Positions 4,019 through 37,188 are shown, counted from the stretch's first letter. The stretch: 64,000 bases of DNA from Patescibacteria group bacterium (GCA_038054875.1 JBBUJK010000029.1:7442-71441), one strand, 5' to 3'. The notes: a model not told the origin generated them from the sequence alone. Numbers and translations: made by a program.

Positions 4019-4489
4019 ATGAGCAATCGGCACCTCGCGCGAACGATCGCCATGCAGGTCCTCTACCAATGGGACTTCAACGGGCAGAAGCCCGATGACG
4101 TCCCGGGCGTTTTGTCGTATCAGATCAAAGAGTTCGCGCCGGAGTTCAATGACAAGGGCTTTATCCAAGAACTCCTGGACGGCGTCCTTCAGCACCAAAA
4201 GGAAATCGACGAGACCATCATCACGTACGCGCCGGAGTGGCCGCTCGAAGCCATTACCCTCGTCGACAAGAACATCTTACGACTCGGTATTTCGGAGCTT
4301 CTGTATTCGGAGACCATCCCTTCCAAGGTGGCCATCAACGAGGCCATTGAGCTGGCCAAAACCTTCGGCGGCGAATCGTCCGGTCGATTCGTGAACGGCG
4401 TGCTCGGCGCGATATATCGGGATCGTGTCTCTGCCGGCCAATTGAAGAAGGTGGATCTCGAGCCGTCTAAGCCTCCAACCCATGAGTGA
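4019..4489 (+). CDS. nusB: transcription antitermination factor NusB
   Basis: [14 protein letters not shown] at the N-terminus and RFVNGVLG at the C-terminus are NusB hallmarks. Confidence 0.85.
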
Positions 4490-5171
4490 CCTTTCCGTGC
4501 TGGAAGCGCGCCTCGGCGTGCATTTCAAGAATCAGGAGAACTTGCGCCAGGCATTGGTGCATCGCTCCTATCTGAATGAACATCCGGAGTTTCCGCTTGG
4601 TCACAACGAGCGGCTGGAGTTTTTGGGTGACGCCGTGCTCGAGCTTGTTGTCACGGAATTTTTATATCGGACCTACCCGAACCCGGAAGGCGAACTCACC
4701 AACTGGCGCGCGGCGCTCGTAAATGCGGTGATGCTTGCTGAGGTGACCGGTGAACTCGAGGTCGAAGAACATCTCTATCTTTCGCGCGGTGAATCCAAAG
4801 ATGCCGGCAGCAAGGCGCGCCAGTACATTTTGGCAAACGCGTTTGAAGCGATCGTTGGCGCGTTGTATCTCGATCAGGGCATGGAAGCCTGCCGCGGGTT
4901 CATCGACGCCAAGCTTCTCACGCGTCTGCCCTACATTTTGGAACATCAACTCTATCTCGATCCCAAGAGTCGTTTTCAGGAGGCGGCGCAGGAGCAACTC
5001 GGCATTACCCCGAATTACAAAGTGCTCGAAGAGTCAGGCCCGGATCATGCGAGACACTTTATCGTCGGCATTTTTCTAGGCGATCAACTTGTGGCCAAGG
5101 GTGAAGGCACAAGCAAGCAGGAAGCGCAGGTCGCTGCTGCAGAAAAGGCCATCGGCGTGAAGGGTTGGTAA
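4482..5171 (+). CDS. rnc: ribonuclease III
   Basis: RNase III signature [20 protein letters not shown] plus a C-terminal dsRBD. Overlaps the nusB stop by 8 nt. Confidence 0.9.
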
Positions 5172-7784: not shown

Positions 7785-8206
7785 CGGCACACGGGTTTGT
7801 CAGGTGTCCCTCAACACCTGGCGCGTTTTTTTATTGCGTGAGCCTTGACATCTCCGCGCATCTCTGCCGGGCGTACGCTAGAAGCATGCCGTTCAACCCG
7901 GACACTCATCGCCGGCGGTCCGACTACCTGCTCAGTTGGCTGTGGATACCAATCTCGACATGCTCGTCCGGACGCGGTATGCTCTTGGCCGCAGTTTCCA
8001 GGTGTCCGGTATCGCGAATCTGGAGGATTTCGCGGGGCAGCAGGCCCCGTTTTTCTATGGCCCGCATCATCTTCGACTACCAGGAATTCGTTCTCCCCGG
8101 CGGGGTGGCAGGGTTGACAAAACCCTCCAATTATGATAGGGTCTCGCGTTTGCTGCCTCAACCGGCCGCATCCGACCTTATGCCCCATACCTGGAAATAC
8201 AATTCC

Positions 8207-8785: not shown

Positions 8786-10594
8786 ATGGAACGCCGCAAC
8801 GTCGCCATCATCGCCCACGTCGACCACGGCAAAACAACGCTGGTGGACGCGCTCTTGAAGCAGTCGCATACCTTTCGGAATGCCGATGCCATGGGCACCA
8901 CGATCATGGACTCGAACCCCCTCGAACGCGAGCGGGGTATTACGATTTTTGCGAAGAACGCATCCATCGTCTGGAAGGACGTGAAGATCAACATTGTCGA
9001 CACGCCGGGCCACGCCGACTTCGGCGGCGAGGTGGAGCGCATCATGAATATCGTGGACGGCTGTTTGCTTCTTGTGGACGCCAAAGAAGGGCCGATGCCG
9101 CAAACCAAGTTTGTGCTCAAAAAGGCCATCGAGGCAGGTCACAAAATTATCGTGGTCATCAACAAGGTCGACAAGAAGGACGCCCGCCCGGAATGGGTGC
9201 TCGGCAAGACCTTTGATTTGTTCGTCGATCTCGGCGCTTCGGACGACCAGGCCGACTTTCCGGTGATCTACGCCTCGGCCGTGAACGGCATCGCCGGCGA
9301 GACGCCGGATATGGCCGCCATGAAGGACATCAGCCCGGTCCTCGATTTGATCGTCGCCAAGATGCCGTCGTCGAAAGGCGATCCGAATGCACCGTTGCAG
9401 ATGTCGGTCGTGAACGTGGCCTACGACAACTACAAAGGGAAACTCGCCATCGGCCGCATCATTGCCGGCCGCATCGCCATGGGTCAGGGCGTCATGCACA
9501 TCGCGCGCGATGGCAAGCGCACCCCGGCCAAAGTGACGTCGCTCATGGCGTTCAGCGGCCTGGAGCGCCAGGAGATTCCCGCCGCCGATGCCGGGGAGAT
9601 TGTCTCCGTGGCCGGCATTGCCGACGTGCAAATCGGGGAGACGATTGCTGATCCGATTGACTCCCAGGCACTGCCGATCATCACCATCGAAGAGCCGACC
9701 GTGAAAATGAACTTCTCGGTCAACACGTCGCCTTTTGCCGGCAAGGAAGGGCAGTATTCGACTTCCCGCAACATCAAAGAGCGTCTGGAGCGCGAACTCA
9801 TGACCGACGTGGCGTTGCGTATGGGGCCTGGTCAGAGCGCCGAGACGTTCGTTGTTTCCGGCCGCGGTGAATTGCATTTGGAAATTCTGATCGAGAAGAT
9901 GCGCCGCGAAGGATATGAGTTTCAAGTCTCGCGTCCGCAGGTGATTTTCCACGAGGATGGTGGAAAAAAGTCGGAGCCGTTTGAACAGGTGTTCATCGAG
10001 TGCCCGGAGAACACCGCGGGTTCGGTCATCGAAAAAATGGGCAAGCGCAAGGGCGAGATGAAGGACATGAAGATCGATTCCGGTACGGCCATGCTCGAAT
10101 TCGACGTTCCCACGCGCGGACTCATCGGCTACCGCGCGGAATTCCTGACGGACACCAAGGGGCTTGGCATCATCAACTCGCTGTTTTTGGGCTATCGGCC
10201 CTGGATCCCCGGATTCGAGTCGCTGCCGCATGGTTCCTTGATCGCCTTCGAAGACGGCACTGCCATGGGCTATGGTCTCGCCGCCGCGCAGGAACGCGGA
10301 CAGATGTTCATTGGTCCTGGTGTTCATGTCTACCATGGCATGGTCGTCGGCCAGAACGCGAAACCTGAGGATCTGGAAGTGAACGTGGCCCGCGAGAAGC
10401 GCTTGTCGAACATGCGCTCCAAGGGCGACGGCGCCGGCATCCGCCTCGACACGCCGCGCGATATGTCGCTTGAAGATGCCCTCGAATATCTCGGTGACGA
10501 TGAGCTTCTGGAAGTGACCCCGCTTTCCCTGCGGATCCGCAAAGCAACGCTCGATCCCATCGAACGCAAGCGCACCGCGCGCATTGCAGAATAA
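8786..10594 (+). CDS. typA: translational GTPase TypA/BipA
   Basis: 602 aa. [35 protein letters not shown] and NKVDK match the BipA family. Confidence 0.9.
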
Positions 10595-10834
10595 GAGACC
10601 CACTCAGAGTCTTGGCCGGGTTGACAAAGCCCGGCTTTTCTGATAGTTTATAGCGTTTCGTACCACGCCTGCACATGGCTCGCAGGGGTGGCGATTCTGC
10701 GATAGGGGACGGTCATTTGGACCGTTCGTCTCTCCCGAATTTTTACGAACGGCATCCACTAGGGATGGCGGGCGTAAGGCATTCGTTCGAGACAACATGA
10801 CCGGCCAGGCGGAAACCTGGAACAACGAGGCTAA

Positions 10835-12229
10835 ATGCGACATGGGATTCTGCTCTTCGCACTGCTCTGTGCGGCGTGCTCCACCGAGCGCGTCGAGGTC
10901 ATCCACGAGATGACCGGCTGCACGGCCGACGCCATGTGCGACGACCGCGACGACGAGACCAGCGACTGGTGCGAGGCCGATTCCGGCTTCTGCAGCCACG
11001 AGCGCACCGTCGTCGGCGGGCTGTGCGCAAGCGCGGCCGACTGCGACGACGGCGACGCGGCGACGGTCGATGCCTGCGAAGGCGGCGACTGCCACCACAC
11101 GCGCGACGTCACCGCGCCCTTCGATCCGGCCGCGCCGGAGCGGCAGGACGCGTACCTGATCTGCGAGACGCCCAGCATGCGTGACGTGGCTCCCGTGGGT
11201 GCGCTCACCGCAGAGCTCATCCTCGAGGGCTGCTACGAGCCGGCGTTCTGGAACGAGACGGGGTACCGCATGACTGCGGTGATCCGCGGTCTCGAGCCCG
11301 ATGAGAGCCTTCCGGTTCGCATCGCGCCGCAGCTGCGGGTCGGTGATCCGAGCGATCGGTATCACGTCACGGTCAGCACCCTCTACAGTTCCGGACTGAC
11401 CACTCTGGAGCGCGTGTCTCTCGCCGGAGACTTCTCCGTTGCGGAGATCGAGGCGGGTCTCGAGGTGACGGTTCCGGGATCGCCTTCCGGTCCGGTCGTG
11501 GGCGGCGCGCAGGTCATCTTGCGCTTCCAGCCGATCGGAGAGGTGCGATCGCGCACCATCCAGTGGGCGCTCCCACCGGACGGAGTGACGCGGCTCGACG
11601 GAGGGACGCCCATCCATACGTGGCCGGCGTCTTCCTCCTTCATGCGCGTGCCGCGCCACGGATTCCTCCGCATCAACGAAGGGTCCGGCGGCGAGGCGCA
11701 GTGTACGGGAGAGCTGCGCACGCTCGACGTACCGCCGTCTGGCTACATCCTCGGCGGCCTGGTGCGTGAGGAGTCCGATCCGGAGATCTTCTATCTCACG
11801 GATTTCGATTCGCCGCGGCGCCTCTACGAGTTCCAGGGCCTGCGGGGGGCGATCGACTGGTTCGGTTGGTGGGAGACCACCTGCGCCCAGGTCAGCGTCG
11901 TCCCCGACGGCAGCTTGGATGATCCGGGATTCGTTCGCGCGACGGTCGGTCTCCGTCCCGGCACCAGCGTGACGTGGTACGACCCGACGAGCGGCGTGCG
12001 GCGCTTCGGCTACACGGATCGCAATTTCGTGATTCGGGATACCGACGGAGTGGTCTCGGGGGTCGCCTGTTCCCGGTATCCTTCCTGGAGCGGAGATCTC
12101 CGCGGCTGCGAGCTCGACATCACGAGCATGCTCGCGGAGTACACCGTGATGCTGGCGACCGAGCCGTATCCCGACCTCGACCAGCTTCGGGCCTGGTCGA
12201 TCCAAACGTACGACGGCGGCAGTCCGTAG
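10835..12229 (+). CDS. Cys-rich lipoprotein with MopE-like putative metal-binding motifs
   Basis: Lipobox LLCAACS. Repeated C-x-DC-DD/DDxD spacing (CTADAMCDDRDDETSDWCEADSGFC; CASAADCDDGDAATVDACEGGDC). GC about 70%. Confidence 0.5.
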   Translation: MRHGILLFALLCAACSTERVEVIHEMTGCTADAMCDDRDDETSDWCEADSGFCSHERTVVGGLCASAADCDDGDAATVDACEGGDCHHTRDVTAPFDPAAPERQDAYLICETPSMRDVAPVGALTAELILEGCYEPAFWNETGYRMTAVIRGLEPDESLPVRIAPQLRVGDPSDRYHVTVSTLYSSGLTTLERVSLAGDFSVAEIEAGLEVTVPGSPSGPVVGGAQVILRFQPIGEVRSRTIQWALPPDGVTRLDGGTPIHTWPASSSFMRVPRHGFLRINEGSGGEAQCTGELRTLDVPPSGYILGGLVREESDPEIFYLTDFDSPRRLYEFQGLRGAIDWFGWWETTCAQVSVVPDGSLDDPGFVRATVGLRPGTSVTWYDPTSGVRRFGYTDRNFVIRDTDGVVSGVACSRYPSWSGDLRGCELDITSMLAEYTVMLATEPYPDLDQLRAWSIQTYDGGSP

Positions 12230-12367
12230 CAAGCGCCCCGCGTGGGTCGCAAAGGGGAGGGCAGTGCTCTTCGTGAGCACACCCTCCCATCCTTTTTCCA
12301 GCCCATCTCCGTGAAACGAGGTGCCCTGGAAGAGAGGATCCCTCTCTTGGTTCTTACAACGAGGTCA

Positions 12368-13183
12368 ATGATGCGTGCGCCACTACTCGCACTCCTGCTT
12401 ACCGGCTGCTACCTGTCGCACGAGCGTGCGGCACCCGTCGCGCCCGTGCCAGTCGCGGGTACCGCCATGGTGCGGTTGATCCGCGAAGCGCCCACACCGC
12501 TCGGATCGGATGAGAGTCGCCTGATCGGTGTTCATGTCTGGTCGACGGGCAATCCCATCGGCGTCATGAAGATGCTCTTCGTCCTGCATACCTTCCGAGG
12601 TGATCTCGTGGGCGATCCTGGATGGGGCATGGGCGATTTCCATCTCGAGATGAACGGCGAGGACGTGACGTCGGCTCTCGCCGAGATCTACGCTTGGGAG
12701 GGCCTCGTGGGCGTTGCTCCCAGGGACCTCGAGCAGGTGGTCTACGTCCGCTTCCATCACGAGCTTCTCGTGGATGGTGTCGGGTCGGACTTCATCCTGC
12801 ATGGTCGCGTGACGCGCGGGTCGCTTATGCCGGGTGACGAGCTGGAGCCCCGTTTCGTCTTCGGCGAATTTCCGGAGTGGTCCTGTCCGAATCGGGGGAT
12901 GCTGACGCCCACCTATCCGGTCACGGAGCGTCGCGTCTTCGGACCCGACATCTACAACGACCTTGCAGTCGTGCCGTGCGTTGTGCCGGTCGAGGCGGGT
13001 ACCTCGGAGAGCCCGTGCGCCGACACGACCTACGCGCGATTCCTCTGGTCGCCGCGAACGTCGCCGAGACATTCGGATCTCGACTGCGCAAGTGGCGGGT
13101 CGGATGACTGGGTGAGTGGCGCCTCGACGGACGACCCGGCTGCCATGGGTTCGGATCTCGTCGGCGAGACGCATCGTCCGTAG
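12368..13183 (+). CDS. hypothetical lipoprotein
   Basis: Start MMRAPLLALLLTGC (lipobox), preceded by a conserved leader module. Six-frame ORF 12242..13183 trimmed to the ATG after the conserved SD. Confidence 0.5.
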   Translation: MMRAPLLALLLTGCYLSHERAAPVAPVPVAGTAMVRLIREAPTPLGSDESRLIGVHVWSTGNPIGVMKMLFVLHTFRGDLVGDPGWGMGDFHLEMNGEDVTSALAEIYAWEGLVGVAPRDLEQVVYVRFHHELLVDGVGSDFILHGRVTRGSLMPGDELEPRFVFGEFPEWSCPNRGMLTPTYPVTERRVFGPDIYNDLAVVPCVVPVEAGTSESPCADTTYARFLWSPRTSPRHSDLDCASGGSDDWVSGASTDDPAAMGSDLVGETHRP

Positions 13184-13312
13184 GCGAGTCACCCGCAGGG
13201 GAGGGGCAGTCGAGTCCAGCTCGACACCCTCCCATCCTTTTTCCAGCCCATCTCCGTGAAACGAGGTGCCCTGGAAGAGAGGATCCCCCTCTTGGTTCTT
13301 ACAACGAGGTCA

Positions 13313-14125
13313 ATGATGCGTTCCTTGTTTCTCGCACTCGCGTTCTGCGCGAGCGGTTGCGGTGCACGGAGCGGACTCGAGTGTCCCGAGGTGCCCGTGC
13401 GGATTGCGGACGCCGGAATTCCGGACGCGCCGCTTCCCGTCGACGGCGGGACGGATGCCGGCAGCGACGCGGGAGTCGATGCCGGACCGCCCGCGCCGAC
13501 CTGCGTGGAGCCGGAGCCCGGTCGGCCTGTGGACTGCTCCTTCTACCTGAGCACGGGGCCTGGTGGCGGCTGCTTCTGTCGAACCTGCCCGCCGCGTTCC
13601 GACGACCGGGACCTCGCGCCCGGCAGCCTGGTACGGGGTACGAGTTCGTTCGCCAGTCATGTGGTGTACGTCATCGGGCGTGACGGCAGGCGGCATGTCT
13701 TCCCGTCGCCGCTCGAGCTCGCCTCCTGGCTCGGTGATGCTTCAAGCGCGGGTCCGACGCACCGCTGGGGCGACGGCGAGGACCGCAACCACATCTGCGC
13801 CCACATCGTGCAGGTGCCGGACGACGTCCTGAGCGCTTACCCGCTCAGCGATCGGAACGTGACGGTCCGACCCGGCACGTACATCGTCACCATCGATACC
13901 GTGCCGACGGAATGGGCGATCGACCGCGGGGGAGTGCTCCGCGAAATGACCCCCGAGATCTCCGAGGAGATCTGGCCGTTCTCCGCCCGCCGTCGCGTAC
14001 GGATCGTCGACGATGCGCTCTTCGGCAGCTACGTGCTCGGTTCGCCGGTCACGTCGGCCGCCGACTACGATCTCGATGCGCTCGCCCGCGTCACGCTGCT
14101 CGACGATCTCGAGGCACGGCCGTAA
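13313..14125 (+). CDS. hypothetical lipoprotein
   Basis: Start MMRSLFLALAFCASGC. The leader and first codons are near-identical to the preceding gene; the body is unrelated. Confidence 0.5.
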   Translation: MMRSLFLALAFCASGCGARSGLECPEVPVRIADAGIPDAPLPVDGGTDAGSDAGVDAGPPAPTCVEPEPGRPVDCSFYLSTGPGGGCFCRTCPPRSDDRDLAPGSLVRGTSSFASHVVYVIGRDGRRHVFPSPLELASWLGDASSAGPTHRWGDGEDRNHICAHIVQVPDDVLSAYPLSDRNVTVRPGTYIVTIDTVPTEWAIDRGGVLREMTPEISEEIWPFSARRRVRIVDDALFGSYVLGSPVTSAADYDLDALARVTLLDDLEARP

Positions 14126-14226
14126 CGCACGGTCAATCGGGAGTGGAGCTCACACGAGCTCCGTTCCCGTCCTTTTTCCAGCGCACCTCGCAACACGCGA
14201 AGCGTCCTGGAAGTGAGGAGAACCAG

Positions 14227-14547
14227 ATGCGTCAGGGCTTGTTCGTTGTCATTCTGTTCCTTGCGGCGGCCTGCGCCGGACCGATGCGGGAGGCGGAGCT
14301 GCTTTCCGTGCCGGAGTGGCGCGGCACGCGGCCCGCATTCCTCTCCGAACAGGAGACGGACTGCGACGCGGAGTTCGCGCGCACCTGGCTCTTGCAGCCG
14401 CCCCCGTGCGATCCTTCAGTGCTGGATCCCTGGCGGAGCATGAGCAGCCGCCGAGCGCCGCTTCGGCCGGAGCGGTCGTTCCGGCAATCCCGTCTGCGCG
14501 AGTCGGACACGACGATCGAGGAGGAGCTCGCGGCCCCCGCGCCCTGA
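14227..14547 (+). CDS. hypothetical small lipoprotein
   Basis: MRQGLFVVILFLAAACAG. Preceded by the same leader module (CCTGGAAGTGAGGAG-N6-ATG). Confidence 0.45.
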   Translation: MRQGLFVVILFLAAACAGPMREAELLSVPEWRGTRPAFLSEQETDCDAEFARTWLLQPPPCDPSVLDPWRSMSSRRAPLRPERSFRQSRLRESDTTIEEELAAPAP

Positions 14548-14717
14548 GCGCGGCGCCCCCTGGGAGCGTTATCCCAGTCCTTTTTCAAGACCATCACCGC
14601 GCGGTGCGGTGGCGGTCTGGAAGTGAGGATACAAACGTCGGTGTATCACCCGGCGGCAACGCTCGTAGAAGTGGGTACGGACTTCCTGCAGAAGTGCAGG
14701 AAGAAGGAGAAAACATA

Positions 14718-15110
14718 GTGAGATTCATTCTGACGGCTGTCTGCGCATTCGCCCTCAGCGGCTGCGCAGCGCTCGACCAGTACAGCGCGCGGCGCTCGGC
14801 CGAGTACGCGCGCGCCCGGCATGCGGAGCACGCCGAGGTCGAGCATCACGCCCTGCGTGACGGCACGACGATCCGACGGATCGACGCGTGCCGGGAGGAG
14901 CGGTGCATCGGCCACGGCCGCATCTGCACCATGAACATCCTCGATGCGGACGGGGACGGCAGTGCAGCCGCATCCTGCGGCGGCGAGGACTGCCGGGACG
15001 ACGACCCGACGGTCTCCCCGAACATGTCCGAGATCCGGGACGGCATCGACAACGACTGCGACGGCATGGTCGACGAGACCTGCGCCCCGGGCGAATCCCT
15101 TCATCTCTGA
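14718..15110 (+). CDS. lipoprotein with MopE-like metal-binding motif
   Basis: GTG start 8 nt after AAGGAG. Lipobox FALSGC. C-terminus CGGEDCRDDDPTVSPNMSEIRDGIDNDCDGMVDETC matches the putative Cu/metal-binding repeat known from myxobacterial MopE-like proteins. Confidence 0.5.
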   Translation: MRFILTAVCAFALSGCAALDQYSARRSAEYARARHAEHAEVEHHALRDGTTIRRIDACREERCIGHGRICTMNILDADGDGSAAASCGGEDCRDDDPTVSPNMSEIRDGIDNDCDGMVDETCAPGESLHL

Positions 15111-15202
15111 TGAGGAGGTCCGCCCGTTCTTTTTTATGGAAGGCCTTCGACGCGTCGAGGGGCTTCCACTGTCAGGCTGTGCCGTGTTAGATTGCTCGCG
15201 AT

Positions 15203-16468
15203 ATGCGCTACTCCCAGCTGTTCGCCAAGACCTCGAAGACCGTGCCGCACGACGCCGACTCCGCCAACGCGCGCTTCTTGGTGCAGGGCGGCTTTGTGAG
15301 TCAGCTCGCCGCTGGCATCTACACGTATTTGCCGTTCGGTTTGCGCGTCCTCGATAAGATCAAGAACATCATTCGCGAGGAGATGAACGCGCTCGGTGCA
15401 CAGGAAGTGCTCATGCCTGCACTCACCCCGAAGGAGCCCTGGACCGTGACCGGGCGCTGGAATGAGATCGACGTGTTGTTCAAGCTCGAGGGTCACGGCG
15501 ACAAGGAGTACGCGCTCGGCTCGACGCACGAGGAGATTGTGACGCCGCTCGTGCAGCAGTTCGTGAAGTCGTACAAGGATTTGCCGACGAGCGTCTATCA
15601 GATCCAGGACAAATTCCGGAACGAACCGCGCGCGAAGTCCGGCTTGTTGCGTGGCCGCGAGTTTTCGATGAAGGACATGTACAGCTTTCACCTCACGGAA
15701 GCGGACTTCGAACAGTATTACGAGCGTGCCAAGGAAGCGTATTTCAACGTCTACCGCCGCTGCGGGCTTGAAGCGCTCATCGTCGAAGCATCGGGCGGCG
15801 CGTTCTCCAAGTTCAGTCATGAGTTTCAAGTGCTGACAGACTCCGGCGAAGACCTGGTGTTCCACTGCGCCTGCGGCTTTGCGCAGAACAAGGAAATCGC
15901 CGAGGTGAAAGAAGGCGACACTTGCCCGAAATGCGGAGAAGGGAAGATTGCAGCGGACAAAGCCATCGAGGTCGGCAATATCTTTCCGCTCAAGAGCCGC
16001 TTCACCGACGCATTCAACTTTAAGGTCGCAAGTCAGGATGGCAAGCCGCAGCCAGTTCTCATGGGCTGCTACGGCATCGGTCCTTCGCGCGTCATGGGCA
16101 CGATCGTCGAGGTCCACCATGACGACAAGGGGATTGTCTGGCCGCGCGGCGTGGCGCCGTTCGATATCCACGTCGTCTCGATCGGCGGCAAGGATTCGGA
16201 GAAGGTGATGGCTGCGGCGGAAGCACTCGTCAAAGACATCGAGGCTACGGGACTTGAGGTGCTTTGGGATGACCGCGACGCGCCGCCGGGCGAGAAGTTC
16301 GCCGACGCCGACCTGATCGGCATCCCGTTGCGGCTTGTCGTGTCCGAAAAGTCGCTCGCGAAAGACGTCGTCGAGTGGAAGGAGCGCGGCAGTGAGAAAG
16401 CCGATCTCATCCCGAAGAACGATTTGATCGAGGCCGTGCGCGCTTGGGTGGGGCTGCGCGTCGCATAA
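15203..16468 (+). CDS. proS: prolyl-tRNA synthetase (short form, no editing domain)
   Basis: 421 aa. Class II aaRS motifs (FRNEPRAKSGLLRGREFSMKDMYSF; GCYGIGPSRVMGTIVE) and C-terminal anticodon-binding domain. Confidence 0.9.
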   Translation: MRYSQLFAKTSKTVPHDADSANARFLVQGGFVSQLAAGIYTYLPFGLRVLDKIKNIIREEMNALGAQEVLMPALTPKEPWTVTGRWNEIDVLFKLEGHGDKEYALGSTHEEIVTPLVQQFVKSYKDLPTSVYQIQDKFRNEPRAKSGLLRGREFSMKDMYSFHLTEADFEQYYERAKEAYFNVYRRCGLEALIVEASGGAFSKFSHEFQVLTDSGEDLVFHCACGFAQNKEIAEVKEGDTCPKCGEGKIAADKAIEVGNIFPLKSRFTDAFNFKVASQDGKPQPVLMGCYGIGPSRVMGTIVEVHHDDKGIVWPRGVAPFDIHVVSIGGKDSEKVMAAAEALVKDIEATGLEVLWDDRDAPPGEKFADADLIGIPLRLVVSEKSLAKDVVEWKERGSEKADLIPKNDLIEAVRAWVGLRVA

Positions 16469-23738: not shown

Positions 23739-23767
23739 AGGTCGCGCATGATAGCACTCGTGTTGGA

Positions 23768-23843
23768 CTCCCTCCAGCTCCCTCTTCGCAAGAGGGAGAG
23801 TATGCGCGGGCAACCCCCTCTTGTGAAGAGGGGGAAGGGGGAG
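23768..23843. repeat. REP-like double-hairpin repeat, copy 1
   Basis: CTCCCTCTTCGCAAGAGGGAG ... CCCCCTCTTGTGAAGAGGGGGAAGGGGGAG. The same element occurs at 34488 and 37094. Confidence 0.7.
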
Positions 23844-27195: not shown

Positions 27196-27345
27196 GCCGT
27201 TGTTCTTTATCATGGTGGTATGTTGAAAGCGGCGTTTTGGGGCTTTTTTGAAGGCCCGAGAATGCCGTTTTTAACAGGTTGGTCCGAACTCGCGCTGGTG
27301 CGCGGGAGAGGGCTTGTCTGGCGGCGGTCGGAAGGTAGGTCAGCA
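27196..27345 (+). ncRNA. conserved 5' leader shared with the 37225-37351 leader (candidate cis-regulatory RNA)
   Basis: Blocks GGCCGTTGT / GCGGCGTTTT-GGGCTTTT-GGAAGGCC / GCCG(C)TTTT-ACAGGT are conserved between the two leaders. Both end in a GC hairpin plus SD. Confidence 0.35.
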
Positions 27346-27993
27346 ATGGCTCATCTCATCGCGGAAGTCTCACTCGGTCAGGTCTCGGAGCTCATCGCCC
27401 GCCTCGGGCGCGCGGGAATGGATCCCGCGCTCCTCAAGAAGGCGCTCGGTGACGACGAGTTGGTCGAGCGGATGGTCACTGCGGCCCGCACGGAGTCGCA
27501 GGACACCCCCACCCCGACGTCCTTCCCCATCTGGAAGACCATCCAGATCGGCGGGAAGACGAAGGACCAGCTCATCGCCGAGATCGAGGCGAAGGGCATG
27601 AAGATCGGCGACTACGCGCAGAGCATGCTGGCGAAGGAGGCGTTCACGACGCTTCCTAAGCCGTGCGAGCTCACCCTCGTCCGTCCCACGGTCGCGGAGC
27701 TCGGCTTCAAGAAGGGCGCGGTCACGAAGAACATCTGGAAGCGCGCCCAGGACCTGGGCCTCTCGCTCTGCCCAGCCGAAGTCGGTCCGCACCTGCGGCT
27801 CGTCGACGCCGACCAGGCGAGCGGCGACTACTACTGGATCGGCATGGAGCCGATCACTGGCGCCGGCGTCTACCCGGACGTGTTCATGGTCGGGCGCGGC
27901 GACTGCGGGCGCTGGCTGTTCAGCAGCGGTGCCTGGCCGGGCGATCACTGGTTTCCCGAGTTTCGGCTGGTGTTCGTCGCTCCGGGCAAGTAG
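27346..27993 (+). CDS. DGR target (variable) protein; C-terminal variable region ends ...EFRLVFVAPGK
   Basis: The 3' 135 nt (VR) matches the downstream TR, differing only where TR has adenine. The C-terminal FRLV motif is typical of C-type-lectin-fold DGR targets. The N-terminal 45 aa are paralogous to the gene at 37352. Confidence 0.7.
   Translation: MAHLIAEVSLGQVSELIARLGRAGMDPALLKKALGDDELVERMVTAARTESQDTPTPTSFPIWKTIQIGGKTKDQLIAEIEAKGMKIGDYAQSMLAKEAFTTLPKPCELTLVRPTVAELGFKKGAVTKNIWKRAQDLGLSLCPAEVGPHLRLVDADQASGDYYWIGMEPITGAGVYPDVFMVGRGDCGRWLFSSGAWPGDHWFPEFRLVFVAPGK
27857..27990 (+). repeat. DGR variable region (VR)
   Basis: About 134 bp aligned to TR 28350-28483. About 21 mismatches, nearly all at TR adenines (A to G/T). 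Confidence 0.8.
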
Positions 27994-27997
27994 TGGT

Positions 27998-28048
27998 CCT
28001 TGGCACGTGGTCCCTTGGTCGATGAGACCTTGGAACCCTTGCCCTTGG
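27998..28048 (+). repeat. array of five CCTTGG direct repeats immediately 3' of VR
   Basis: CCTTGG at 27998, 28013, 28028, 28043 (plus CCCTTG at 28036), spaced 15 nt. This is the position where DGR IMH/cis elements usually lie. Confidence 0.5.
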
Positions 28049-28349
28049 ACCGATCGGCGTCACCTCCATCACTCGTTCGCGAGTGGTGTCGAGGTGGCGC
28101 CGCACTTTTTTTATCCTGATATACTGGTGTCGGTAGTAGGCGAATACGCGGGAGATCACGGTTTCCCGCTGCCGAATCCGTTTCGCACGCGTCCAGAGTC
28201 CGTCGGATCACGGTTCGCCGGAGCGTGGCTCGTGATGAATCAAAAAATGAAGATACTTGGTGTGCGCGCCTAGGCCATTCTGATGGCGAATACGATTCAG
28301 CCCGGAGAGTACTCAATGGGCAGTGTTCCGGACGGACGCGCGCACGTCA

Positions 28350-28483
28350 CCGACGCCGACGACTACCCGAACGTGTTCAAGGTCGAGCACGACGACAACG
28401 GGCGCTGGCTGAACAGCAACGATGCCAAGCCGGACGATCACTGGAATCCCGAGAATCAGCTGGTGTTCGTCGCTCCGGGCAAC
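28350..28483 (+). repeat. DGR template region (TR)
   Basis: Adenine-rich (many AAC codons in the VR frame) homolog of VR. The listed ORF 28283..28552 is this TR, not a gene. Confidence 0.8.
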
Positions 28484-28488
28484 TCTCT

Positions 28489-28914
28489 TCATTTCTCCCC
28501 GTTTGCCCTGCGCGAAGCGCTGGGTGTCGGGGAGTTTTGTTTGACGAGCTGACCATGCCAACCGCCGAGCATCCTGCCGACCTCGTCGACGCGCTGCGAA
28601 ATGGCGATATACTTCTTGTTGTCGAGCGATTTCGTTTCCCAGAGCACGAGAAGCAAGATTTTCACCGTGTCGAGTTTCCGGACGGCGTCGCGGACCGCCG
28701 GAATCTTTTCCTGCCGTGGCGTGAAGACGGCGGCAACGATCGCCTCGATCGTCTCGATGAAGAGAAGATCAACGCGTTGACCGAGCGTATGTCTATGGAT
28801 TTTCGGAATCGTTTCGTAGTAAGCGAACCAGATCAGATACGCGCTTTTCGTTTTCTGGAGGATCGGCAACAGCGTCGGGGGGGGGGCTTGATGAATCCGT
28901 CGGATGCGCAGCAT
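28489..28914 (-). CDS. avd: DGR accessory variability determinant (Avd)
   Basis: The minus-strand ORF ends ...AISQRVDEVGRMLGGWHGQLVKQN, a helical Avd-type signature. The N-terminal roughly 20 aa may not be translated. Confidence 0.55.
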   Translation of the reverse strand: MLRIRRIHQAPPPTLLPILQKTKSAYLIWFAYYETIPKIHRHTLGQRVDLLFIETIEAIVAAVFTPRQEKIPAVRDAVRKLDTVKILLLVLWETKSLDNKKYIAISQRVDEVGRMLGGWHGQLVKQNSPTPSASRRANGEK

Positions 28915-29896
28915 ATTCCGTCATACCTACGAAGAGATTACTTCTGTCGAGAACCTGCTTGAAGCATGGCTGGAGTTCGTGTGCGGCAAGCGAGGACGGG
29001 CCGACGTCCAGGCGTATGAGCTGGACCTGATGGGCAACCTGTTCGCGCTTCATGAACGGCTTGCCGCGATCACCTACACGCACGGACCATACGAGGCGTT
29101 CACCGTCTCGGATCCGAAAACAAGGAACATCCACAAAGCCACCGTCACGGACCGCGTCCTCCACCGGGCAGTGTACCGGAAGCTGTACCCCTTCTTCGAC
29201 CGCACGTTCATCGCCGACTCCTTCTCCTGCCGGAACGGCAAAGGGACGCACAAGGCGCTCGACCGCTTCCGCACCTTCGCCCGTCGCGTTTCCAGAAATC
29301 ATACGCGGACCGTCTGGGTGCTGAAATGCGACATCCGCAAGTTCTTCGCTTCCATTGATCACGTCGTACTGCTCAGGCTGCTCGACGAACGCATTGAAGA
29401 CAAACGCATCACGTGGTTGCTCGGGCGAATCGTCGGTAGCTTCTCATCGACGCGTTCCGGAGTCGGCCTGCCGCTCGGCAATCTCACCTCGCAACTGTTC
29501 GCCAACATCTACATGAATTCGCTCGACCAATTCGCCAAACATTTTCTCAAAGCAACGCAGTACATCCGCTACGCCGATGACTTTGTCATCCTCTCGCATG
29601 ACCGACCGTATCTTCTCGCGGTGCTCAACCTGACCCGACAGTTCCTTCGCGAACGCCTGCATCTCGAACTTCATCCCCAGAAGGTCACGATCACCACTGT
29701 CGCATCCGGCGTGGATTTTCTGGGATGGGTGCACTTCCCGGATCATCGCGTGCTGCGGAACGCGACAAAGAAACGGCTGATGAGAGCAATCTCTCAACAC
29801 GCAGATCGTGCGACGCATGCCTCCTATCTGGGATTGCTTCGCCACGGAAACGCGCATACTCTTCATCAATGCATCACACGCGCGATTGGGAATTGA
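28904..29896 (+). CDS. DGR reverse transcriptase
   Basis: Has the RT YADD box (YIRYADDFVIL) and the DGR-type [I/L]GxxxSQ motif (LPLGNLTSQ) in place of the retroviral QGxxxSP; the N-terminal segment ITSVENLLEAW is also present. 330 aa. GC lower than the flanks. Confidence 0.9.
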   Translation: MRSIFRHTYEEITSVENLLEAWLEFVCGKRGRADVQAYELDLMGNLFALHERLAAITYTHGPYEAFTVSDPKTRNIHKATVTDRVLHRAVYRKLYPFFDRTFIADSFSCRNGKGTHKALDRFRTFARRVSRNHTRTVWVLKCDIRKFFASIDHVVLLRLLDERIEDKRITWLLGRIVGSFSSTRSGVGLPLGNLTSQLFANIYMNSLDQFAKHFLKATQYIRYADDFVILSHDRPYLLAVLNLTRQFLRERLHLELHPQKVTITTVASGVDFLGWVHFPDHRVLRNATKKRLMRAISQHADRATHASYLGLLRHGNAHTLHQCITRAIGN

Positions 29897-35268: not shown

Positions 35269-37092
35269 ATGTGCGGCATCATCGGCTACATCGGCAATCG
35301 CCCGGCCACGCCCTTCCTCATCGAAGGACTGCATCGTTTGGAATACCGCGGGTATGACTCCGCCGGCGTGGCGCGTCTGACGCCGACAGGGCTTGTGCTT
35401 TCCAAGGCGGCCGGGAAAGTCGCCGAGCTTGCCGCGCTCCTGCCGGCTGATGCGACGGAGACGCTGGGCATTGCCCACACCCGCTGGGCGACCCACGGCG
35501 CGCCGTCCGAAGTGAACGCCCACCCGCACCTCGACTGCACCGGGAAAATCGCCGTCGTGCACAACGGCATCATTGAGAACTATCAGCACTTGAAACGCCG
35601 GCTCGAAGACGAAGGTCACCGCTTCCTGTCGGAAACCGATACCGAAGTGTTGCCCCATCTGATTGAAAAGCATTACCGCGAGAATTTGGGCGAGGCAGTG
35701 CGCCTGGCGCTGCAGGAAGTGCGGGGCGCCTATGCCGTGGCCGTTGTCGCCGCCGACCAGCCGAATTTGATCGTCGCGGCACGTCGCGGCAGCCCGCTCG
35801 TGCTCGGCGTCGGCACGAACGAACACTTCATCGCCTCCGACGTCGGTGCAATCCTGCAGTTCACCAAGGATATCGTATATTTGAACGATGGCGAGCTGGT
35901 GCGTATTTCCCGCGAAAGATTCCGTGCCATGACGCTCGACAATATCTGGGTTGAAAAGGAAGTCGAACACCTGACGCACGAAGCCGACAAATACGAGAAA
36001 GGCCAGTGGCCGCACTACATGCTCAAAGAAATGCATGAGCAGCCGGAAGTCATCCGGCGCGCAGCCATGGGGCGCGTGCTCGTGGATGACGCCATGGTGC
36101 GTTTCAGCGGGTTGAACCTGACGCTCAGCGAGCTGCGCGCCAAGCGGCGCGTCGTCATCATCGGTTGCGGCAGCGCGTCCTACGCCGGCATGGTCGGCAA
36201 GTACCTCTTTGAAGAGTTCGCGGGCATTCCCACGGACGTGGTTGTTGCCAGCGAGTTCCGCTACAAGCGCATCCAGGTGGAAGACGATGCGCTCGTGCTT
36301 GTCGTGAGCCAGTCCGGCGAGACCGCCGACACCCTGGCCGCGTTGCGCGAGCTCAAACGGAAAGGGTTGAAGGTCTACGGCATCTCGAACGTGCTGGGCT
36401 CCTCCATCGCACGGGAAACAGACGGCGGCATTTTCATCAATGCGGGTCCCGAGATCGGCGTGGCATCGACCAAAGCATTTTTGGGTCAGCTCACCGTGCT
36501 CACCCTGCTCGCATTCTTGATGGGCCGGTTGCGGGAGATGTCCGTTGCCGACGGCCGCGAGGTGTTGCGCCAGCTCGGCCAGGTTCCCGGCATCATCGGC
36601 GACCTGTTGGCCCGGCGCGCCGAACTCGCTCCGGCGGTGGCGCTCCTCAAAGACGCGCCGTCGGCGTTTTACCTTGGCCGCAAGATGACCTACCCGATCG
36701 CGCTCGAGGGCGCGTTGAAGTTGAAGGAGATCGCCTACGTCCACGCCGAAGCGTATCCGGCCGGGGAGATGAAGCACGGACCGATCGCGCTTCTGACCGA
36801 CACCTTCCCGTGCGTGGTGCTGGCACCCAAGGACAGCGTCCGTGAAAAGACGATTTCGAACATCCAGGAGATCCGCGCCCGTTCGGCGAAGATCATCGCG
36901 ATCGGCACGGCGGGCGACGAGGAACTCGCGGCGCTCGCCGACGTCTTCTTCCCCATCCCCGAGATCCACGAAATGCTCCTGCCGCTCGTGACGCTCATCC
37001 CGATGCAGATGTTGGCCTACGAAACCGCCGTGGCCAAAGGATACGACGTCGACAAGCCGCGCAATTTGGCGAAGAGCGTGACCGTTGAGTGA
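35269..37092 (+). CDS. glmS: glutamine--fructose-6-phosphate aminotransferase
   Basis: MCGIIGYIG N-terminal nucleophile and two SIS domains. 607 aa. Confidence 0.95.
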   Translation: MCGIIGYIGNRPATPFLIEGLHRLEYRGYDSAGVARLTPTGLVLSKAAGKVAELAALLPADATETLGIAHTRWATHGAPSEVNAHPHLDCTGKIAVVHNGIIENYQHLKRRLEDEGHRFLSETDTEVLPHLIEKHYRENLGEAVRLALQEVRGAYAVAVVAADQPNLIVAARRGSPLVLGVGTNEHFIASDVGAILQFTKDIVYLNDGELVRISRERFRAMTLDNIWVEKEVEHLTHEADKYEKGQWPHYMLKEMHEQPEVIRRAAMGRVLVDDAMVRFSGLNLTLSELRAKRRVVIIGCGSASYAGMVGKYLFEEFAGIPTDVVVASEFRYKRIQVEDDALVLVVSQSGETADTLAALRELKRKGLKVYGISNVLGSSIARETDGGIFINAGPEIGVASTKAFLGQLTVLTLLAFLMGRLREMSVADGREVLRQLGQVPGIIGDLLARRAELAPAVALLKDAPSAFYLGRKMTYPIALEGALKLKEIAYVHAEAYPAGEMKHGPIALLTDTFPCVVLAPKDSVREKTISNIQEIRARSAKIIAIGTAGDEELAALADVFFPIPEIHEMLLPLVTLIPMQMLAYETAVAKGYDVDKPRNLAKSVTVE

Positions 37093-37093
37093 C

Positions 37094-37188
37094 GGACTCC
37101 CTCCGTCTCCCTCTTCGCAAGAGGGAGGGAAACCCGGGTAACCCACCTCGGCAGCCCCCTCTTTGTGAAGAGGGGGGAAGGGGGAGTA
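37094..37188. repeat. REP-like double-hairpin repeat, copy 3
   Basis: CTCCCTCTTCGCAAGAGGGAGG ... CCCCCTCTTTGTGAAGAGGGGGGAAGGGGGAG. Confidence 0.7.

Follow-up and report, generated by a model that had tools for sequence, protein, structure and literature searches.

A two-hairpin intercistronic module in a hypervariable lipoprotein locus of Patescibacteria

The interval between typA/bipA (8786-10594) and proS (15203-16468) in a 64,000-nt stretch of DNA from a Patescibacteria group bacterium (GCA_038054875.1, JBBUJK010000029.1:7442-71441; the whole stretch is hereafter called the window) holds an island of five consecutive plus-strand genes, g1 to g5. As the original prediction stated, each of these open reading frames (ORFs; 10835-15110) begins with an N-terminal signal peptide ending in an x-x-[GA]-C-like sequence, and the products are regarded as lipoproteins. 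Each of g2 to g5 is preceded by a copy of an intergenic module composed of two hairpins (M2 to M5, numbered after the following gene), which is the subject of this report. Beyond proS, the genes for HU, YmdB and RNase Y lie on the minus strand. The GC (guanine plus cytosine) content by codon position follows GC3 (0.76-0.87) > GC1 > GC2 in all five genes, and the long antisense shadow ORFs of g1 to g5 have the mirrored pattern, identifying the plus-strand frames as the real ones. The public gene call begins one codon later than the ORF used for the g2 look-up. The same stretch, at 99.75% identity, is contained in an ENA assembly made independently from the 0.1 um filter fraction of Hainich well H41, and a second contig, from the 0.2 um fraction, matches the island stretch at 99.8%; the gene arrangement is therefore not an assembly artefact.

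The module can be described by the pattern TCCTTTTTCMAG-N(24-27)-CTGGAAGWGAGGA, which occurs exactly four times, at 12290, 13235, 14170 and 14578, once before each of g2 to g5. Shuffled sequences are expected to contain no copy, and none was found elsewhere in the 64-kb window, in agreement with the predicted conservation of the intergenic module at these four junctions (4/4). The module folds into two abutting hairpins with z = -3.3 to -4.7. Hairpin 1, directly 5′ of hairpin 2, is GC-rich, and its copy-to-copy stem differences are compensatory. At the base of hairpin 2, UCCUUUUUCCAG pairs with CUGGAAGWGAGGA, leaving one bulged purine, and the top of the stem is variable; the whole hairpin comprises 17-22 bp with 2-4 G-U pairs and a folding energy of -20 to -34 kcal/mol. 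A single mismatch separates M2 from M3 over 98 nt (12279-12376 versus 13224-13321), a stretch that extends from the 3′ half of hairpin 1 to the first codons. Over 116 nt, which likewise reach into the first codons, identity is 93%; beyond these codons the encoded proteins diverge, as had been noticed originally.

Related loci were found through protein homologues of g1 and g3, followed by exact-protein contig look-ups. Five further lineages were obtained: L026/L027 (GCA_004297205.1, an 856-kb contig), L028, L029, L032/L033 (GCA_964648865.1) with the related L038-L040, and L041/L042, among which L028, L029 and L041 are short contigs covering only part of the island. L026 and L032 share the typA...proS-HU-YmdB-RNaseY frame, and their slot contains ten genes each versus five in the window; in L038, the proS-HU end of the frame is seen. 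g1 is present in L026, L028, L029, L032 and L041, the g5 family in L026, L032 and L038, and the g3 domain in L026, L028, L029, L032 and L038. The other slot genes differ between genomes, and domains are recombined. The intergenic regions of these related islands carry the same two-hairpin module, the arms of which have changed yet still match, as in UCCUUUUCCCAG/CUUGGGAGAGAGGA, CCUUCUUUCCAG/UUUGGAAAGGAGG, CCUUUUCCGAG/CUGGGAGGAGG and UCUUCUCCGGG/CCCGGAGGAG. A covariance model built from 16 module copies gave 21 strong plus-strand matches in six loci; matches outside the training set scored 40-45 bits in L038 and 52-57 bits in L041, and the minus strand gave only weak palindromic echoes of 13-29 bits. 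A degenerate copy precedes proS in L026. No further module was detected by the model in the rest of the 64-kb window or in the flanks of any locus. Homologues of g1 that are more distant (Ca. Uhrbacteria L030; L034-L037) have different surroundings and do not carry the module.

Searches for the module in wider collections gave no counterpart. Rfam returned no match at the gathering score for the window, and at E<=1 the interval 10500-15300 gave only a chance traJ-II match within g1. A scan of 185,579 species genomes and of JGI/ENA metagenome contigs with CCTTTTTCNAG-N(14-44)-CTGGAAGNGAGG yielded one same-strain contig and single matches in unrelated taxa, the number of which is about the chance level by a rough estimate. 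A literature search for an equivalent module retrieved only the general observation of cysteine-rich surface proteins in the Candidate Phyla Radiation (CPR). As an intercistronic RNA module of a hypervariable CPR lipoprotein operon, it is restricted to one clade and had not been described before.

Analysis of base pairing in hairpin 2 revealed that 91.8% of the pair cells over 20 distinct copies hold standard pairs, compared with 87.3% after column shuffling; sliding the partner by 1-3 columns gives 50-66%. Double (compensatory) changes occur at 7 of 17 pairs, and the mean stability advantage of the sense over the antisense strand is 4.7 kcal/mol. Since G-U pairs work only on the sense strand, these features point to a function of hairpin 2 as sense-strand RNA rather than as duplex DNA. 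The original prediction had offered two options for the inverted repeat, an operator or an RNA stem sequestering the Shine-Dalgarno (SD) sequence; the pairing of the blocks, their covariation in relatives and the restriction to the sense strand by G-U pairs favor the latter.

Table 1. Positions of the genes, modules and transcription signals of the island in the window
Feature	Position	Strand	Description
M2 hairpin 1	12255-12288	+	GGGAGGG...CCCUCCC, terminator-like
M2 hairpin 2	12289-12339	+	UCCUUUUUCCAG/CUGGAAGAGAGGA base, variable top
M2, 3′ of hairpin 2		+	alternative small hairpin (GAGAGGAUCCCUCUC), then second SD (ACGAGG)
M3 hairpin 1	13199-13233	+	
M3 hairpin 2	13234-13284	+	identical to M2 hairpin 2
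M4 hairpin 1	14138-14169	+	14 bp, terminator-like
M4 hairpin 2	14170-14219	+	3′ arm is the g4 SD (GAGGAG, 7 nt before ATG)
M5 hairpin 1	14560-14577	+	CUGGGAGCGUUAUCCCAG
M5 hairpin 2	14578-14629	+	22 bp, -30 kcal/mol
g1	10835-12229	+	464-amino-acid lipoprotein, LCAAC|S; conserved anchor gene of the locus
g2	12368-13183	+	271-amino-acid lipoprotein, LLTGC
g3	13313-14125	+	270-amino-acid lipoprotein, CASGC
g4	14227-14547	+	106-amino-acid lipoprotein, LAAAC, orphan
g5	14718-15110	+	130-amino-acid lipoprotein, LSGC, GTG start
typA intrinsic terminator	10614-10640	+	hairpin and U-run; loop carries the -35 TTGACA of the promoter-like site
Promoter-like site	10622-10650	+	TTGACA-N14-TGATAGTTT, extended -10, directly after typA
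Hairpin with ATG in loop	10663-10697	+	conserved, covarying (CCACGCCUGC-ACAUGGCUC-GCAGGGGUGG)
Type B leader of g1	10707-10834	+	same module in L026, L028, L029
Type B, first hairpin	10707-10727	+	
Type B, long hairpin	10728-10793	+	CGAAUUUUUAC.../...GUUCG
Type B, small hairpin	10805-10820	+	CCAGGCGGAAACCUGG, then SD (ACGAGG)
Operon-end intrinsic terminator	15088-15136	+	CGGGCG...CGCCCG, then UUCUUUUUU

Regarding the relation of the module to the following gene, roughly 3-9 nt separate the purine arm from the downstream start codon in most copies of the genomes compared (M4 in the window; L026 13268 and 15722; L032 12221, 12561 and 13438; L029 4376; L038 79, 979 and 1862), so that the purine arm serves as the SD of the gene in most copies. 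The predicted unpaired probability of the SD region is 0.00-0.42 in 11 of 12 leaders; the SD is thus predicted to be paired in a stable, conserved stem. Within the window, g4 alone uses the purine block as its working SD; the block lies 30 nt before the ATG in M2 and M3 and 89 nt before the GTG in M5. Copies of the M2 type, which have about 30 extra nt, follow g1 in every g1-bearing genome and also precede g3 in the window. Their purine arm has two pairing options, the pyrimidine arm or a downstream CCUCUC, with a second SD beyond (topology 1:2 / 2:3 / 3:4), and the fold of the copy at L026 11450 takes the alternative pairing. Between M5 and g5 lies a window-specific insert of 89 nt (14630-14718), which also holds a CUUCCUGCAGAAGUGCAGGAAG hairpin and a possible plus-strand upstream ORF of 25 codons (14641-14718), with a GTG 11 nt after the M5 SD and a TAG overlapping the g5 GTG; in relatives, g5 starts directly after the module, and the upstream ORF is not conserved. 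A long hairpin of other sequence but the same anti-SD/SD masking theme is found at L032 13999-14082 and L038 2422-2505, where CUUCCUUGGAC pairs across an insert of ~60 nt with GUCCAAGGAGG, the SD of a 45-amino-acid gene.

A different leader, type B, precedes g1 and is composed, in order, of a hairpin, CGAAUUUUCA...GUUCG around a variable hairpin, GUUCnnUACAAy, a covarying CCAGG...CCUGG hairpin and the SD. Copies of type B/C are located at 8846-9001, 9845-10000 and 12751-12908 in L026, 1981-2521 in L028 and 1202-1360 in L029, and shortened variants at 9144-9268 and 9869-10003 in L032; the family precedes g1 and other early island genes. The hairpin with ATG in its loop recurs in L026 (8530-8564), L028 (1739-1768), L029 and L032, where it precedes or starts a gene for a membrane protein of 68-76 amino acids that opens the island. 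The window counterpart of this small gene is only a remnant ORF of 42 codons (10673-10801).

Concerning transcription, TTGAC and TGATAGnTT of the promoter-like site after typA are kept in L026, L028, L029 and L032, in L026 despite the missing surrounding hairpin. Judged by its sequence, this site is probably the single promoter of the island operon, of the sigma-70 type. A scan of the island interior detected no sigma-70-like site. TACAAC/TACAAT in type B and M2-type leaders was considered as a -10 element and rejected, as it lies directly against the SD in L032, and sigma-54 and extracytoplasmic function (ECF)-type promoter readings of CTGGAAG/GGAAC were rejected on spacing. A strong terminator is found only after g5. 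As the promoter-like site after typA is conserved, no internal promoter-like site is present and the terminator follows only g5, the island is read as one operon. Hairpin 1 had been called a terminator. In the terminator scan, M4 and M5 pass, and in M2 and M3 UUUUU is set off from the hairpin by 3-4 nt; on the other hand, the U-run after hairpin 1 (5 U in the window) is reduced to 2-4 U in relatives, with SD complementarity kept, and no promoter-like site follows in the modules, so that efficient termination at hairpin 1 would silence g2 to g5. An RNase III gene (rnc) is located at 4482-5171, and the 17-22 bp stems with a bulge or small internal loops resemble the size of an RNase III substrate (about 20 bp, two helical turns). 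The architecture TTGACA-N14-TGnTAGnnT also occurs at 8113-8141, and in two cases the -35 lies in the terminator loop of the preceding gene. proS has TGTTAGATT, in which the -10 (15186-15194) lies 9 nt from the ATG and no SD is present, suggesting that the proS mRNA is leaderless or near-leaderless.

The lipoproteins were classified by a lipobox rule (positive n-region, hydrophobic h-region and [LVI][ASTVI][GAS]C within about 25 residues), applied by regular expression and inspection. All five proteins contain such a lipobox, those of g1 (LCAAC; ISAC in L032) and g4 (LAAAC) being less canonical at -3; signal peptides aside, the five proteins are mutually unrelated. MopE-like motifs had been proposed for the first and the last protein, and this holds for g5 alone. 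Residues 91-120 of g5 match PF11617 (Cu-binding_MopE) with 38.5 bits and E=1.3e-9 (gathering threshold, 27 bits); g5 is thus a PF11617 MopE-motif protein with one Cys/Asp motif and putative metal binding. g1 gave no Pfam or NCBIfam match even at E<=1. Its N-terminus contains two Cys/Asp repeats and is similar to repeat proteins, three of four with PF00526 (Dicty_CTDC), and its predicted model (predicted local distance difference test, pLDDT, 76.8) has a beta-rich domain and no significant match in the PDB. NCBI names g1 a Patescibacteria protein; the family is rare, with about 26 cluster representatives at E<1e-10 among 1.84e9 proteins, and homologues with an organism-naming source all belong to Patescibacteria or Ca. 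Uhrbacteria. The homologue search with g2 returned zero matches, g2 itself included; its mature part is an orphan, and only its signal peptide (..GCYLSHER) is common to genes of relatives. g3 has a handful of homologues, with orthologues in L032, L038 and L029; in L026 and L028, its C-terminal domain is joined to different N-terminal domains, and these proteins carry the g2 signal peptide.

The island proteins are nearly lysine-free, with 0.1% lysine versus 6.4% in the flanking genes of the window: lysine is absent from g1 and occurs once in the mature part of g2. The islands of L026 (8636-16179; 1.1% versus 5.7% in flanks) and L032 (8937-15568; 0.5% versus 6.2%) are similar in this respect. 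Pro, Cys, Asp, Ser, Arg (7-9%) and Trp are enriched, and the lysine depletion goes far past that of other amino acids with AT-rich codons. In CPR genomes, cysteine-rich, strain-variable extracellular proteins weakly similar to Myxococcus repeats have been described (PMC4736985).

Comparison of the loci revealed that breakpoints of homology fall at or near the modules. Homology with L026 stops at 12347, just after M2, and homology with L028 and L029 stops at 12426-12430, past the shared signal peptide; M2 and the g2 signal peptide recur in L026 before a different gene. Whole units of module and gene have been gained or lost between genomes. g4 is a unit-sized insertion or deletion, missing between the g3 and g5 orthologues of L032 and L038, and g5 lies immediately upstream of proS in the window and L026/L027, with three more genes in between in L032 and L038. 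Identity between M2 and M3 is 99%, but it is only 76-86% when they are compared with their counterparts from L028 and L029, genomes whose g1 genes differ by 16-18%; M2 and M3 thus show concerted evolution. From these sequence comparisons, the modules appear to behave as recombination substrates. No recombinase Pfam was found in the genes called within +/-10 kb in L026 and L032 or in the tested ORFs near the window island.

Some features elsewhere in the window deserve a record. A diversity-generating retroelement (DGR) is located at 27220-29896, 13 kb from the island, with a variable repeat (VR, 27854-27989) at the 3′ end of the ORF 27220-27993, a template repeat (TR, 28347-28482) that is 83% identical over 136 nt and a reverse transcriptase ORF (28904-29896; PF00078, E=1.4e-24). 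This DGR is a second, independent surface-variation device; its VR/TR repeats were not found in the lipoprotein island. A 61-nt direct repeat with a CCCTCTTCGCAAGAGGG hairpin, 77% identical between the distant intergenic sites 23760-23820 and 37089-37149, may be another dispersed terminator-like element. A low-GC stretch at 50736-55093 (43-53% versus about 60%) contains an MmeI-type restriction-modification gene (50736-53525), an ORF of 39% GC that matches no Pfam family (53545-54675) and, at 54867-55093, three tRNA genes in tandem. This stretch is a better candidate for a true foreign insertion than the lipoprotein island.

The best explanation, to which a probability of roughly 0.6 is assigned, is a native, lineage-specific, hypervariable lipoprotein operon with hairpin-gated translation, in which the modules serve as recombination substrates. 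According to this explanation, the operon of these groundwater Patescibacteria would occupy a fixed typA-proS slot and be co-transcribed from one promoter, with transcription ending after g5. Hairpin 1 may terminate transcription weakly and/or protect the 3′ end of the upstream RNA. In hairpin 2, the pyrimidine "anti-SD" tract UCCUUUUUCCAG would pair with the SD block of the next gene, and the top would be free to vary. In the intact transcript, the stem would mask ribosome binding, leading to translational gating of each downstream cistron; because the stem is so stable, strong repression would be expected unless it is opened. The SD would be released most plausibly by endonucleolytic processing of the stem, for which RNase III is the favored candidate, although another RNA-opening factor is possible. 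The repeated modules would also act as substrates of homologous recombination or gene conversion, by which units of module and gene could be reshuffled, deleted and added between strains. A bolder version considers the module as a dual-purpose "junction unit", the RNA of which silences each lipoprotein cistron until RNase III or another factor cuts it and the DNA of which allows unit swaps, that is, an integrase-free analogue of a cassette array with translational gating. This version is tentative and on present evidence rather doubtful; if it were true, strains would show their hosts different, almost lysine-free lipoprotein sets.

Several points weigh against the preferred explanation. The shuffle control is exceeded only moderately (91.8% versus 87.3% paired), as a pyrimidine tract facing a purine tract pairs in nearly any register. 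Support is inflated because the copies include both paralogues and orthologues and because their alignment had been fitted to the model. In M2, M3 and M5, the purine block is not the SD nearest the start; a second, proximal SD is present, and that of the M5 leader is predicted to be open (0.86). The module is not lipoprotein-specific, as two genes after type A modules in L026, for a 177-amino-acid protein and a CDP-alcohol phosphatidyltransferase, encode no lipoprotein. CPR promoters are poorly known, and internal promoters may exist. Co-transcription, termination efficiency, hairpin formation in vivo and processing are all inferred from sequence.

Among the rival explanations, the one given most weight assumes no dedicated regulatory device: the modules would be "terminator plus ribosome-binding site" spacers copied by tandem duplication, and their complementarity would be a by-product of a U-tract beside an SD. 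Hairpin 1 with UCCUUUUUCC indeed passes a simple terminator scan in M4 and M5, the composition of the pyrimidine and purine tracts alone accounts for 87% pairing in shuffles, and the modules are limited to one locus. However, pairing is not confined to the U-tract and SD but includes CCAG/CUGG and an upper stem that varies with compensatory changes, and the arms change in a matched manner, U>C with A>G and CCAG>CCGGG with CUGG>CCCGG. Moreover, both arms are kept even roughly 90 nt from the start codon (M5), pairing persists where the U-run decays, and the spacers are far better conserved than the unrelated proteins that they flank. This explanation is therefore considered unlikely. A system of DNA cassettes, in which the inverted repeats are recombination sites (attC-like or other) and the genes mobile cassettes, is less probable still. 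Such a system would fit unrelated, co-oriented, promoterless genes lying between imperfect inverted repeats with conserved bases, variable centers and a bulge, as well as unit-wise presence or absence with breakpoints at the modules. Membership in an integron was nevertheless rejected, since an integrase was not detected and the modules lack attC core motifs, the arms being CCAG/CTGG and not RYYYAAC/GTTRRRY; the genes called within 10 kb in L026 and L032 and the tested window ORFs include no integrase or recombinase. The sense-strand structure with G-U (G-T) pairs and a 3′ arm doubling as SD, the absence of the module from the other genomes scanned, and breakpoints that reach into signal-peptide codons, fitting homologous rather than site-specific exchange, also stand against cassettes. 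A FourU-type RNA thermometer, whose U-run pairs with the SD and melts with temperature, would account for a leader of two hairpins in which UUUUU forms A-U and G-U pairs with GAGAG/GUGAG in a bulged stem. FourU and ROSE elements melt at physiological temperatures, and the hairpins described here, with 17-22 bp and -20 to -34 kcal/mol, are far more stable than such elements; in GC-richer relatives, C-G pairs replace the U-run, and the source aquifer is assumed to be thermally stable. A thermometer is accordingly very improbable.

Two further readings originate from the original prediction and carry little weight. The first takes TTCCAG-N-CTGGAA as the operator of a dimeric transcription factor at each gene. 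The inverted repeat is conserved upstream of each gene as required, but the arm spacing varies (24-27 nt in the window, about 18-29 nt in relatives), the half-sites change yet stay complementary rather than keeping their sequence, including T/G "wobble" that is asymmetric in DNA and the 2-4 G-U pairs in each hairpin, and a promoter-like site on which a regulator could act is missing; there is scant reason to expect an operator. The other reading, which the original prediction only implied, holds that the island, described as having 70% GC and motifs odd for this genome, was recently acquired, for example from Myxococcota. In its favor, one protein has a MopE-type motif, low-complexity linkers have a "myxobacterial" look, and the GC content of the coding sequences is above that of the ten flanking genes, although the figure is 67.6% (64.6-70.1% per gene) versus 60.8%. 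The excess resides in GC2 (0.53 versus 0.41 in flanks) and not in GC3 (0.82 versus 0.79) and is attributed to amino-acid composition. In L026 and L032, island GC3 does not exceed that of the flanks (0.84 versus 0.87 and 0.90 versus 0.94, respectively), so synonymous composition fits the host in three genomes. The same typA...proS locus, the g1, g3 and g5 families and the modules occur at the same chromosomal position in related Patescibacteria with native composition, and the island borders have no tRNA, integrase or flanking direct repeats. The shared position and families together with GC3 indicate that the locus is native and hypervariable and not a recent import, and judged by the refuting condition of the original prediction itself the foreign reading fails; a foreign origin is the least credible of the explanations considered.

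CPR/Patescibacteria are uncultivated and host-dependent, and their gene regulation and surface variation are almost unknown. The module provides a candidate cis-regulatory RNA motif with >25 copies in at least five species-level genomes, none of them in Rfam, placed at each of the junctions in an operon that varies between strains. Should the hairpins act as gates of translation or mark sites of processing, they would offer a handle on post-transcriptional control in CPR, and if the modules also mediate the shuffling of units, they would explain how surface repertoires diversify without dedicated recombinases. The scope is narrow, being one clade and one locus; SD masking by a hairpin is a classical principle, of which the module is a new variant.

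Several known systems share features with the module. RNase III cuts intercistronic hairpins in the early mRNA of phage T7 and in the lambda N leader. The stems described here are likewise intercistronic, ~20 bp in length and interrupted by a bulge or internal loop, and a cut would protect the upstream 3′ end and free the next SD; they differ in having no sequence similarity to those hairpins and in belonging to a CPR host instead of a phage. The vlp/vsp-type families of Mycoplasma are variable surface lipoprotein loci with conserved 5′ regions. They resemble the island in the tandem lipoprotein genes, the conserved upstream region and signal-peptide start, the divergent mature parts and the repeat-driven recombination and strain variation, whereas in the island phase-variable repeats or invertase sites were not found, the mature proteins are unrelated and not variants of a repeat, and the conserved element is a pair of RNA hairpins. 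Integron cassettes also consist of promoterless, unrelated, co-oriented genes and imperfect palindromes with conserved ends and variable centers, but the modules lack the integrase and the attC cores, have an RNA-type fold on the sense strand and use the 3′ arm as SD. SD-sequestering hairpins and translational operators are established in polycistronic mRNAs, for example at the coat gene of MS2 and Q-beta (PMC2978339). As in these phages, a stable stem is predicted to hold the SD of the downstream cistron, and translation would depend on its opening. In contrast to MS2 and Q-beta, the anti-SD arm lies in an untranslated spacer after another hairpin and is repeated at every junction of the operon; classical translational coupling is thus not expected, since ribosomes finishing the upstream gene cannot melt a stem borne by the spacer. 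Finally, the cysteine-rich proteins of Peregrinibacteria average about 1,650 amino acids (PMC4736985), whereas the proteins described here are small lipoproteins encoded in one operon that contains conserved RNA modules.

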